Of a stretch of DNA of 64,000 nt, positions 26,128 through 31,836 are shown one piece after another. The notes beneath the pieces are model-generated. The model searched no databases and was not told where the DNA came from. It saw only the letters and a program-made list of their open reading frames with translations. The DNA is from Aulosira sp. ZfuVER01 (GTDB taxonomy: Bacteria > Cyanobacteriota > Cyanobacteriia > Cyanobacteriales > Nostocaceae), in the NCBI GenBank assembly GCA_034530615.2, contig JAVRCV020000025.1, forward strand, positions 64,001 to 128,000, written 5' to 3'. The position numbers were made by a program, and so were the translations under genes. Position 1 is the first letter of the stretch; each line of letters opens with the position of its first letter.

Positions 26128-27759
26128 CTACTCAACGCTAGCCTTAATCTTAAAATCGCCAGATCCTCGGTAAGCACGAACTAGGACAAAATATTCGCCT
26201 GGTAAGTCTGTTTGTACATGAATTCGCTCGTCAGCCGAACTGGTATATCCCCGGTAATCATACTCGTTGATGGTTGGTTGCGCTCCCTTTCTCACATACA
26301 GGTCAAAATCTACTCCTGTAGGCCCATCGAGTTCAATCAGCACTTTATCTTCTACTTGCACCCGATATGTTCTGGTGTCGCCAGTTTGACTCAAATTTCC
26401 CGAAACAATTTCTCCAATTGGCAGTTCGGGTAGTTGTGGAGGTTGTGGTGGCTCTATAGCGTTGAGGATACCAGGAACATTAATTACACCGTAACCATGA
26501 CTATAGTCAAACCCGATTCCGCCTAAATCTTCAGCAGTGCGGCGTATGAGTTGACGTAGTTGTGCTGGCGGAATTTCGGCAGGAGAATATACGGTGCGAA
26601 TTGCTGCAACTACGCCAGCCGCCACGGGACAAGCGGCGGAGGTGCCATTATCTTCTGGATAAACACCAGAACCAACAAAGTGTGTATAGCCACAAATATC
26701 TGGTTTTTCAGTGGAGAGCCGTCCTGGCCCTTGGCTGGAATAACCTACACGCTCTTTTTTATATGTCACGCCAGCCACACTTAAAACACTGGGGTGAGAG
26801 TTGGCTCCATAAATCGCTCTTTTGGTAATTCCTGCACACTGAGACGAGGGACATTCTTCACCGCAATTCCCAGCAGCAAAGAGAATATCAGCACCAGCAT
26901 CTTCTAAGCTTTCGACAATGATGTTAAAAGGATGATTGGGATTGTCGCTGTAGTTCCCAGAATTACCTACAGGAAAATCCCAGGTGGGATTATACATTCC
27001 CCAACTGTTATTTACCACCAAGGCGGGTTTTGGGTCGGGAGCTTGTAAAAGAAATTGCAGGAGATTGCTGAAAGCCTTAACTGCATCGCTCAAAAAACCT
27101 TCCATGACTGTGCTTCCCGATGCTTGCGACTGGAGAAGCGCATAATCAAGTATGGTGCAGTTGGGGGCTGCAATACAAACATCAAAGGCACACATTGTGC
27201 CATGATCGATATCACCTTTTCCTGGAGTTATTCCTGATACTGGTGTCCAACTTTTAGTAGCATCAAAATTTGGATTTTTGCCTTTTTTCGTCAAATGAGC
27301 TAAGTTAACTCCGGTATCAACAATGGCTACCAAGACATTAGCACCATCCATACCTTTGGCTTTTAGTTGTGCCACGTTGAGGACATTTTCTACATCTTTA
27401 TGGGTGCCGACAGATCCTGGAGGACACACAGCAAAAGTACTAATCTTTGGGTCAGAAAAAACACCAACAACGTTAGGATCTGACTCAATAGCCGCAGTTA
27501 ACTCAGCTAAAGCACTCTCGTCTGCAACTTCACCGCGAACTAGGTAAGTAGAAACTTCTGGGCGAGCATTAAAGGTGAACAATCGCCCGACTTCTCGATC
27601 TCCAATAACTGTCCGTGGCTGTTTCTCAGGAACTAGTACTGGTGCATAACTTTCATCAATTGCAACTCCAGGAAGTGCCAACGATCTAGCTGTGGCAACT
27701 AAACTTCTCGCATTCGCTATTGCAGTCGGTGCATAACGCATCTGAACTAATACGCGCAT
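26128..27759 (-). CDS. S8 (subtilisin-like) peptidase with prodomain and C-terminal PPC domain, no signal peptide
   Basis: IVDTG, HGT, AAGN and NGTSAACP motifs; DFDLYVR PPC motif. Start at MRVLV, behind AGGAG (the ORF track starts at 27807). Confidence 0.92.
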   Translation of the reverse strand: MRVLVQMRYAPTAIANARSLVATARSLALPGVAIDESYAPVLVPEKQPRTVIGDREVGRLFTFNARPEVSTYLVRGEVADESALAELTAAIESDPNVVGVFSDPKISTFAVCPPGSVGTHKDVENVLNVAQLKAKGMDGANVLVAIVDTGVNLAHLTKKGKNPNFDATKSWTPVSGITPGKGDIDHGTMCAFDVCIAAPNCTILDYALLQSQASGSTVMEGFLSDAVKAFSNLLQFLLQAPDPKPALVVNNSWGMYNPTWDFPVGNSGNYSDNPNHPFNIIVESLEDAGADILFAAGNCGEECPSSQCAGITKRAIYGANSHPSVLSVAGVTYKKERVGYSSQGPGRLSTEKPDICGYTHFVGSGVYPEDNGTSAACPVAAGVVAAIRTVYSPAEIPPAQLRQLIRRTAEDLGGIGFDYSHGYGVINVPGILNAIEPPQPPQLPELPIGEIVSGNLSQTGDTRTYRVQVEDKVLIELDGPTGVDFDLYVRKGAQPTINEYDYRGYTSSADERIHVQTDLPGEYFVLVRAYRGSGDFKIKASVE

Positions 27760-27902
27760 TGTGAATTTACTCCTAAGACTTGAAGTTATTGCTGAACCGA
27801 CAGCCACGCCATCTGTTTAAGTCATGGATCAAAAACTGCGAGCGCACTTCTTCATCCACGACTTAAATTTGATTTTCCCTACACCCCTAAGACAACAATT
27901 AG

Positions 27903-31200: not shown

Positions 31201-31836
31201 CATCAAACAAGAAATTTGACCATCTACAGAGTCTGGTAAATTTACTTCCTGCTGCTCGGAAATAAATAAAATTATTCCCTTGAGTAGCTCAAATATCGGT
31301 GGCGCATTCCGTAAACTGCGCCAAATTACGTAATCAAAATTGTTCTGTAATTGTTCTGCTAACTTCACAGATAAAGCTGTTTTACCAATCCCTCCCATAC
31401 CTAACAGCGCTACCAAACGGCATTTTTCATTGACAATCCATTCTTTTAGTTTTGCTTGTTCGTCTCTGCGCCCATAGAAAATAGAGACATCAATTGCTTC
31501 TCCCCAATCTTGATGCTGGCCTGTCTGAGAAGTTACTGTATTCAGTATTTGTGACTCTGCTTTTGGGAGACGAGAATAATGCCGTCTCAATACAGATTTA
31601 ATATTACTTTTAGTGACATTTTCTTCTAATGCTTTTGAGAGAGTCTGCCATAATCTATACCCTACATCTCGGATATAATCATTATCATAGCCAGAGCTTT
31701 CAGCAATCTCTGCATAGGTGTAGCCTTCCCAAGACTGACGCAGCACTAGCTCTTGAATGTTACTTAAATGTTTTTGCTGTAACACTCGATCCAAAACCAG
31801 CATCGCTTGTTCAAACGTCAAATCGGTTGCTCCCAC
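28282..31836 (-). CDS. STAND NTPase: N-terminal HTH, NB-ARC, WD40 repeats
   Basis: DWGEA..FYGR, GMGGIGKT, LVVLDN, FTSRE and GNPLAL motifs; about 14 WD40 repeats; RPYEN tail. Confidence 0.92.
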   Translation of the reverse strand: MGATDLTFEQAMLVLDRVLQQKHLSNIQELVLRQSWEGYTYAEIAESSGYDNDYIRDVGYRLWQTLSKALEENVTKSNIKSVLRRHYSRLPKAESQILNTVTSQTGQHQDWGEAIDVSIFYGRRDEQAKLKEWIVNEKCRLVALLGMGGIGKTALSVKLAEQLQNNFDYVIWRSLRNAPPIFELLKGIILFISEQQEVNLPDSVDGQISCLMQYLRSRRCLVVLDNTESILESGKRLGRYRSGYEGYGQLFRRVGDERHQSCLVFTSREKPTGFALREGESLPVRSLQLTGLRQTEAQQILAAKGLVTSAEECQKLIQCYTGNPLALKIVATTIQRLFDGNVGLFLQQAPAVFGDIGQILEQQFNRLSVNEKQVMYWLAIKRQWVKILELEEDIVPTISKRELLEVLLSLQGRSLIEQQSGRYTQQPVVMEYMTEQLIKQICHEISFKEIELFNSYSLIEATAKDYVRESQRRVILEPILSRLKTSLRKTTTIENRLIEIIAIIRDKFSTKPGYAGGNIINLLRQLNVDFTGRDFSSLTIWQAYLKDVSLHQVNLSHTDLKNSAFNEALVKILAVKFSPDGKLLATGDVNGRVNLWKMQNGQQLRSFEGHTGWVWQAHFSPDGKTLASCCENGIIKLWDIKKGRCLHTVQDDTIRGWLSSFSPDGSLLACGRTDQTIKLWDTRSGECVKTLQRQENTIGPVAFSPNGQILASGSEDATVKLWDVSTGECLHTLQGHTQAVWSVSFSPDGKILASGSEDKTIKLWDVSSGKCWQTLQGPHIELVWSIAFSPDSQILAIAGEATAIGLWDINTGKCIKTLSGHSTRIWSINFSPNGKILASGSDDQSIRLWQISTGRCIQTFQGYPGFIGSLAFSPDGQYLAGNTGYTVRVWDLAKKNSLKSFYGHTRDVMALAYSTDGHTLVSGSLDGTIRIWNVSKGQCLKILEEHTGMIFSLSYSPDGQTLASGSADKTIKIWDGTTGKCLKTLEGHIGWVFSVAWSADGKFLASISEDSIHLWDVTTGQILKVLPGSYSFVGPLAFSPNSQVVVTGDLEYRIQFWDISTGNCWQTLQGHTSTVTDVKFSPQGDMLASVSRDQTVKLWDTQTGECLNTLQGHSHWIWAMAFHPHGKILASGSQDETIRVWDVTTGECLQILRSPRPYENLNIQGVTGLSNAQKATLKILGAVE

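Follow-up and report, generated by a model that had tools for sequence, protein, structure and literature searches.

A subtilase and a likely stand-alone paralog of its own prodomain form a conserved, widespread two-gene unit in prokaryotes

Small stand-alone inhibitors that resemble subtilase propeptides include yeast IB2 and plant SPI-1. Further cases, placed in MEROPS I9/clan JC, are POIA1, TgMIC5 and Plasmodium SUB1-ProM, the last of which adjoins its own subtilase genes; in the parts of the source on which we draw, peptidase-inhibiting proteins are said to be sparse among prokaryotes, and the characterized mimics are eukaryotic and without significant sequence likeness to propeptides, which is read as possible convergence (PMC6993865). 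Here we analyze a window of 64,000 nucleotides from the 8.0-Mb genome assembly of the cyanobacterium Aulosira sp. ZfuVER01 (contig JAVRCV020000025.1, positions 64,001 to 128,000), in which the gene for an S8-family subtilase lies next to a gene for an 80-amino acid protein. The two genes form a conserved two-gene unit that is real and widespread, and profile comparisons identify the small protein as a stand-alone paralog of the protease's own prodomain. Like the I9 mimics, it is a small free gene product with a propeptide fold and the same predicted binding mode; unlike them, it is prokaryotic and detectably homologous to the prodomain of its partner.

Parts of this arrangement are known from other bacterial proteases. 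The inhibitor Spi of Streptococcus pyogenes is reportedly a propeptide homolog. Spi is small, co-transcribed with the protease SpeB and thought to guard the cytoplasm from protease that is active prematurely (PMC3462683, in part); SpeB, unlike the protease described here, is a secreted C10 cysteine protease of another fold. The Aeromonas sobria subtilase ASP likewise has an adjacent small gene, ORF2, whose product binds the catalytic site with its C-terminus, but ASP is extracellular and propeptide-deficient, and ORF2 replaces its prodomain (PMC5638518, in part), whereas the protease here keeps its own prodomain and has no signal peptide. PopC of Myxococcus xanthus is a signal-less subtilase without any known domain in its N-terminal part; PopD, a partner degraded on starvation, forms a complex with it and restrains it, but PopC is secreted full length (PMC6434023, in part), and none of the 80 loci surveyed below comes from Myxococcota. 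Finally, IetAS and mycoplasma TA132/3 are two-gene modules of an S8 protease and a restraining partner, which in those systems is an AAA-ATPase (PMC8562856, in part) and here a likely 80-amino acid prodomain copy. PADLOC gave only a weak generic 'subtilase' match for the window protease (E 2e-8), and the pair is not Pfam I9, not ASP/ORF2, not IetAS and not Avs-like.

The pair and the prodomain-coding part of the protease gene lie in the window as follows:

27903..28145, minus strand: 80-amino acid stand-alone prodomain paralog, probable I9-like inhibitor (open reading frame and family profile)
26128..27759, minus strand: S8 subtilase with PPC domain, 543 amino acids from the ATG (Pfam S8 E 4e-25, PPC E 1e-9)
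27427..27759, minus strand: prodomain-coding part of the protease gene, residues 1-111, I9-like fold (alignment and AlphaFold2 model)

The protease comprises the prodomain (residues 1 to ~111), a catalytic domain (~112-440), a Pro-rich linker and then the PPC domain, and its ATG is preceded by AGGAG 10 nt upstream. The small open reading frame (ORF) is a real gene, with 21 of 21 candidates homologous at 54-93% identity, and has no match above cut-off in Pfam, NCBIfam or PADLOC.

From 128 loci in GTDB genomes at which the protease was confirmed, we surveyed the best 80, which cover 13 named bacterial phyla and include 3 archaeal records. With an iterated profile, the small gene was found beside the protease in 76 of the 80 loci at E < 1e-10: downstream in 60, upstream in 14, downstream and convergent in one (L039) and fused in one (L078). 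At each of the four remaining loci the contig ends no more than 149 nt from the protease on one side, and one of them (L079) has a cut-off copy of the small gene. The neighborhood survey suggested by the initial annotation thus found the small gene and the S8 protease to be conserved together; the third gene that it had named, encoding a signal transduction ATPase with numerous domains (STAND), was linked in only 2 of 80 loci. Reciprocally, a metagenome scan that used one representative small protein as query found the protease directly upstream of 11 of 13 matches, the other two being one at a contig edge and one that was weak and not confirmed by the profile. Nocardia, the genus of L047, has the small gene in 55 of 151 genomes and the protease in the same 55, always adjacent (kin in this count are not independent), and among 251 genomes of an alphaproteobacterial order, the 2 with the small gene are also the 2 with the protease, again adjacent. 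Each of five genomes checked has one copy. The spread is patchy, with the pair in 2 of 401 cyanobacteria and, within the host genus, in 3 of 15 genomes. Pairwise identities of the partner and of the catalytic domain are correlated, with r 0.73 across the 73 loci compared (reached in 0 of 2000 permutations) and 0.45 when the pairs are distant, which shows joint inheritance and not residue co-evolution.

Individual loci depart from the common arrangement. The small protein is fused in frame onto the protease C-terminus at L078 (7989-9536), the convergent small gene of L039 lies at 9736-10011, and at L042 the small gene (6925-7209) is 810 nt upstream. Candidate fusions at L073, L042 and L053 were rejected as overlapping frames, leaving L078 as the only in-frame case, and the single longer fused form of the small protein among 7999 candidates was an over-long start call and weak evidence. 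In genome G450, the small gene is kept beside a protease broken into two frames (G450:C27:56270-57261).

Near-obligate pairing, the occurrence of both gene orders and patchy spread also fit a toxin-antitoxin-like or abortive switch, in which a halt of synthesis on phage attack or starvation would remove an unstable small antidote and unleash a toxic mature protease. One copy of the pair, with 52% protease identity, is on a Streptomyces plasmid near IS21 genes; the small gene stays in genome G010, where a transposase-like ORF interrupts the protease gene (L102:7899-10986); and S8 proteases are the toxins in AAA-ATPase/subtilase pairs (PMC8562856, in part). The genomic surroundings argue the other way. 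We called 177 neighbors from 58 loci by crude gene calling, leaving out 22 near-duplicate loci. A Pfam scan of 150 of these, with the STAND of L001 excluded as known, found mixed housekeeping genes and no NB-ARC, NACHT or WD40 domain, and PADLOC, run on 72 neighbors, found plausible defense genes at only 2 loci (L031 and L040, the latter with a caspase), a count that stands without a background rate for comparison. Apart from the 80-amino acid protein, no neighbor recurs across phyla. The small gene was absent from 253 pattern matches in viral contigs and from phage records, no DNA-binding part for autoregulation was seen, and distant relatives of the protease live without the partner. We regard such a switch as unlikely, also in the form of a toxic cytoplasmic subtilase with an unstable prodomain copy as antidote and swappable C-terminal domains, an undescribed Cys/Pro-rich repeat tail among them, choosing the target; if true, duplication of the toxin's own zymogen cap would have given rise to the antidote of a toxin-antitoxin or abortive system. 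At L031, the PADLOC match is to OloA/OloB (314-4223), ~3.7 kb upstream of the pair. A PADLOC mad3 match in L073 was set aside, as that neighbor is presumably UvrA-like, judged by sequence resemblance.

To compare the small protein with the prodomain, we built the two families separately from 77 small proteins and 73 prodomains, dropping a few loci with bad starts, X residues or breaks. Hhalign aligned the two profiles with a probability of 97.5% (E 8.3e-12, 79 columns), and the three motif pairs from which the initial annotation had proposed a colinear alignment are exactly the columns placed in register. Pairwise likeness of the small ORF and the prodomain is weak (BLASTP E 0.35; local score reached by 40 of 5000 shuffles), too weak for the pairwise alignment alone to serve as proof of homology, and the reverse search with a prodomain hidden Markov model picks up small ORFs weakly (E 0.003-0.009). 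The prodomain bears an insertion of ~25-30 residues that is absent from the small protein, and ends in GVFSDPKISTF-AVC. An AlphaFold2 model of the small protein, with a predicted local distance difference test score (pLDDT) of 94.7, had as its best fold match among 48,161 chains the subtilisin propeptide 3bgo_P (Z 6.5, root-mean-square deviation 2.5, 67 residues aligned), with POIA1 at rank 5 (Z 5.8) and pro-subtilisin E at rank 10. The top fold match and the profile match agree with the original proposal of a stand-alone prodomain paralog. Identities as HMA, ACT, RRM or S6 domains were rejected, as these share the same common fold and find no support from sequence or context, as was a Pfam AtTam9 match (E 0.04-0.06), which falls under the cut-off and appears in only 1 of 77 family members.

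Pfam I9 was matched by 0 of the 77 small proteins at E 0.1, and no PDB sequence matched under E 0.4. The missing I9 match together with the propeptide-type fold suggests a new family that works like I9 without being a member of Pfam I9. Counted to E 0.001 and at the 50% identity level, it has 767 representatives, and its ESM Atlas matches are only unnamed clusters of 78-86 amino acids. A quick tree separates the 77 small proteins from the 73 prodomains by a single branch (Shimodaira-Hasegawa-like approximate likelihood ratio test 99), with 123 columns that are few for 150 rows. Judged from this tree, the small proteins may stem from a single old origin, and repeated recent duplication of the prodomain is not indicated.

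The protease family is catalytically intact. In 73 of 73 aligned proteases the Asp-His-Ser triad, in that order, and the oxyanion Asn are invariant, and the window protease matches PF00082 with 89 bits against a cut-off of 21.8; the intact triad noted at first reading corresponds to D148, H186 and S374, with N298 as oxyanion residue. Residues 1-110 fold as an alpha/beta domain in an AlphaFold2 model of the protease (pLDDT 88), whose top Foldseek matches are the pro-forms ProN-Tk-SP and pro-subtilisin E, and a full, confidently folded prodomain is kept throughout the family. At E 1e-20, 3070 of 8000 scored candidates belong to it, some of them as more distant relatives. The lack of a signal peptide, also part of the initial annotation, agrees with a crude hydropathy test: the best value for the first 45 residues of the window protease is 1.15, compared with best 12-residue values of 1.99-2.71 for six window proteins with a secreted look. 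In a wider check with a crude hydropathy threshold, which five of six secreted-looking controls exceeded, 1 of 121 proteases and 6 of 150 small proteins lay above it, and the rest had no signal stretch.

Beyond the catalytic domain, the 121 proteases vary: 71 end in a Cys-repeat tail, 18 in CARDB and 11 in PPC, 20 have other C-terminal regions (a class that includes some PPC domains missed by the pattern) and one has none; the Nocardia and Anderseniella proteases have no C-terminal domain. All 121 carry G-N-C-G-x2-C-x4-C beside the oxyanion Asn (residues 297-308 in the window protease), and a Cys just past the prodomain is nearly invariant (C112). These conserved cysteines by the active site possibly form a zinc or other metal site, disulfides or a redox switch. 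A signal-less subtilase with PPC or CARDB domains and conserved cysteines could instead act outside the cell, with the small protein retaining it until release on cue, much as PopD restrains PopC, itself a subtilase without a signal peptide (PMC6434023, in part). No transporter gene recurs among the neighbors, however, and the pair is found with envelopes of Gram-positive, Gram-negative and archaeal type, so that we consider export control of this kind quite improbable.

Several features of the wider protease family were seen along the way. The unannotated tail in 71 of 121 proteases consists of two or three D-I-C-R-R-x-P-x-L-C repeats followed by a Pro-rich run, and continues with a helix bearing A/G-Y-x-x-G and a terminal G-C-G-C motif (examples at L012, L014, L031 and L045); it is possibly a metal-binding or targeting domain. 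At L104 (602-2545), the protease tail ends in a pair of predicted amphipathic or hydrophobic helices flanked by two Cys, which sets it apart from the rest of the tail types. A sister clade (L084-L086, from genomes G023, G036 and G026) comprises subtilases of 750-770 amino acids that share the prodomain type and whose C-terminal region is a Trp-rich, propeller-like repeat; the small partner is absent from these genomes. A Bacillus plasmid ORF (L119:2078-6079), adjoining a LanC-family gene, contains two tandem S8 domains along with three prodomain-like units, of which one is an additional unit located between the two proteases.

We next modeled the complex by co-folding the catalytic domain (residues 109-440) with the small protein in three runs, alongside 3 controls. 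The score was 0.91 in the three runs and at best 0.01 in the controls, passing a mark reached by 116 of the 157 solved pairs and by 2 of the 215 mismatched ones (counts that are rough here, with alignments of our own). The co-fold proposed in the initial annotation took up a propeptide pose, a pass that may come from the predictor's memory of solved structures. The runs share at least 94% of contacts, with a partner pLDDT of at least 90. In the predicted pose, the partner's sheet (residues 2-6 and 37-49) packs on protease helices ~220-238 and 275-287, and its residues 67-80 are in the interface, with the C-terminal strand GVHGDMKVEPFNS placed in the active-site cleft; on the protease side the interface takes in D148, H186, the S252-W253-G254 strand, N298 and S374. 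In this model, the small protein probably plugs the protease active site.

We assigned a P1 register by analogy, taking a conserved Asp/Asn as Asp71 of the BPN' propeptide, which ends six residues past that position. In BPN', Asp71 serves in helix capping (PMC6993865, in part). With this register, the small proteins would have Ile at P4 (93%), Pro at P2 (80%) and Phe at P1 (75%), followed by Gly (74%) and Pro (63%), in 147 of 150 sequences that are top profile matches and so biased to consensus; a median of 5 residues extends past the putative P1. The corresponding P4-P1 pattern, I-x-P-F, resembles the substrate AAPF. The putative P1 varies among the prodomains (T 34, Q 19, C 13, M 12, I 10%; 109 of 121). 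By this analogy, the free copy may be adapted to mimic a substrate tightly, with a short tail that hinders cleavage, and the prodomain to serve as a removable cap.

The same predicted binding site and the variable prodomain P1 could also suit a folding chaperone or activator acting in trans, where the insertion-bearing prodomain would be a poor chaperone, or would be displaced by the small protein during maturation. ORF2 provides a precedent, being encoded directly downstream and both chaperone and inhibitor, but its protease ASP lacks a propeptide (PMC5638518, in part), while every protease here keeps a full prodomain; moreover, relatives that share the prodomain type have no such partner. 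We judge a role as chaperone improbable.

We think it probable, if by no means assured, that the pair consists of a signal-less S8 protease and a dedicated inhibitor descended from one old prodomain duplication. By analogy with subtilase biology, the zymogen would fold on its own prodomain, cut it off and be held only until the prodomain is degraded. The sheet of the small protein would then bind the same two surface helices, with its C-terminal strand (consensus I-x-P-F, then G-P-P) in the cleft, so that it could act as a renewable back-up inhibitor that keeps the matured enzyme quiet in a common compartment, most likely the cytoplasm. The protease would become active once titration or turnover depletes the inhibitor or, alternatively, after leaving the cell by lysis or unconventional export, and its variable C-terminal domain (PPC, CARDB, the Cys/Pro-rich repeat tail or none) might set its substrate or place. 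Both the inhibition, drawn from the predicted complex, and the cytoplasmic location of the two proteins are what we infer.

Several observations weigh against this reading. Linkage and binding fit a chaperone or a slowly cut substrate as well as an inhibitor. Subtilisin-propeptide complexes have already been solved, so the co-fold pass may speak for likeness only, and the P1 register is set by analogy. The propeptide fold match lies under Z 8, on a level with those to S6, RRM and ACT folds, and Foldseek with the small-protein model gave nothing at E 0.001 or better; since the fold alone is therefore unspecific, the paralogy claim rests on the profile match and context. Where protease identity falls to 30-39%, the partner is missing although the prodomain type is shared (none of 3 genomes and none of 3 plasmid loci has it), indicating that it is not required by every such enzyme. 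PPC and CARDB domains are usually found on secreted proteins, and the invariant protease cysteines could be disulfides. PopC, finally, is exported without a signal peptide (PMC6434023, in part).

The third gene of the locus lies upstream of the pair:

28282..31836, minus strand: winged helix-turn-helix (wHTH)-NB-ARC-WD40 STAND protein, 1184 amino acids, with Walker A GMGGIGKT at residue 146 and Walker B LVVLDN at residue 221

The initial annotation had described STAND, 80-amino acid ORF and S8-PPC genes as co-oriented, as indeed they are, and had the STAND protein sense a signal and induce the protease or release it from its inhibitor. Such coupling would fit the shared strand and the short intergenic gaps (136 and 143 nt), as well as a wHTH that could drive local co-expression; all three cyanobacterial copies in the genus lie directly behind the same STAND gene, and an unrelated AAA_16 ATPase is near the pair in L039 (one BTAD-AAA_16 regulator) and L044. 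STAND homologs, however, occur only at L001 and L002, the closest relatives (85-86% protease identity), in a survey where at least 5 kb was available on both sides in 52 of 80 loci and upstream in 63. A profile of the 17 STAND segments of the same type in the window genome added one weak match, to the unrelated AAA_16-type ORF in L044. All 14 other genomes of the host genus have the STAND ortholog; among the matches listed, one and the same Ser/Thr-His kinase adjoins it in 13 of the 14. Only two of these genomes, G009 and G010, have the protease. In the remaining 12, neither member of the pair is present in the DNA read behind STAND (8.5 kb; 1.9 kb to the contig end in G008), and in five of these STAND is closely followed by an ABC transporter gene, which in G009 and G010 comes after the pair. 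The STAND of G009 is internally shortened to 923 amino acids, and G010 is the genome with the interrupted protease. A STAND that is constant while the pair behind it is present or absent indicates that the pair was gained or lost at the site and STAND stayed; the genus count and the 80-locus count both concern close relatives and are not additive. No Avs model matched the window STAND, for which PADLOC gave only a WD40-region match. Control of the protease by STAND thus finds no support in these distributions, and we hold it to be highly improbable. The STAND gene is not part of the module, and the link is a local coincidence: it would simply flank the place that the pair occupies in the host lineage, with local co-transcription possible. 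An adjoining cyanobacterial NB-ARC-WD40 gene is weak evidence of coupling.

An AAA_16-type ATPase ORF in L044 (3993-4385) starts just behind the small gene. In the window, a promoter scan of the locus found no sites, and terminator matches were at chance level; these include a terminator-like G+C-rich hairpin with a T run at 26031-26055, between the protease gene and a converging collagen-like gene. The ABC transporter gene (12366-13997), which is closely behind the protease in G009 and G010, is separated from it in the window by ~12 kb (14183-25959). This block contains another wHTH-NB-ARC-WD40 gene (17540-21121), whose N-terminal half is 43% identical, as well as three ORFs with a secreted look and no Pfam match above cut-off (21349-24207) and a Gly-rich collagen-like ORF (24421-25959).

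We found no description of a protease/prodomain-paralog pair in the literature searched, which lay mostly outside subscription papers and supplements, so that mention in a comparative-genomics table is possible; the pair is apparently undescribed so far. Stand-alone propeptide mimics are already known, and what appears to be new is a prokaryotic family without a Pfam model match. An unannotated small-protein family thereby receives a proposed function, and a large uncharacterized subtilase clade is defined. With the likely descent from the prodomain visible in sequence here, the origin of such inhibitors becomes directly testable. The pair is small and easily assayed, and new subtilase inhibitors or an intracellular protease that can be controlled could be derived from it.

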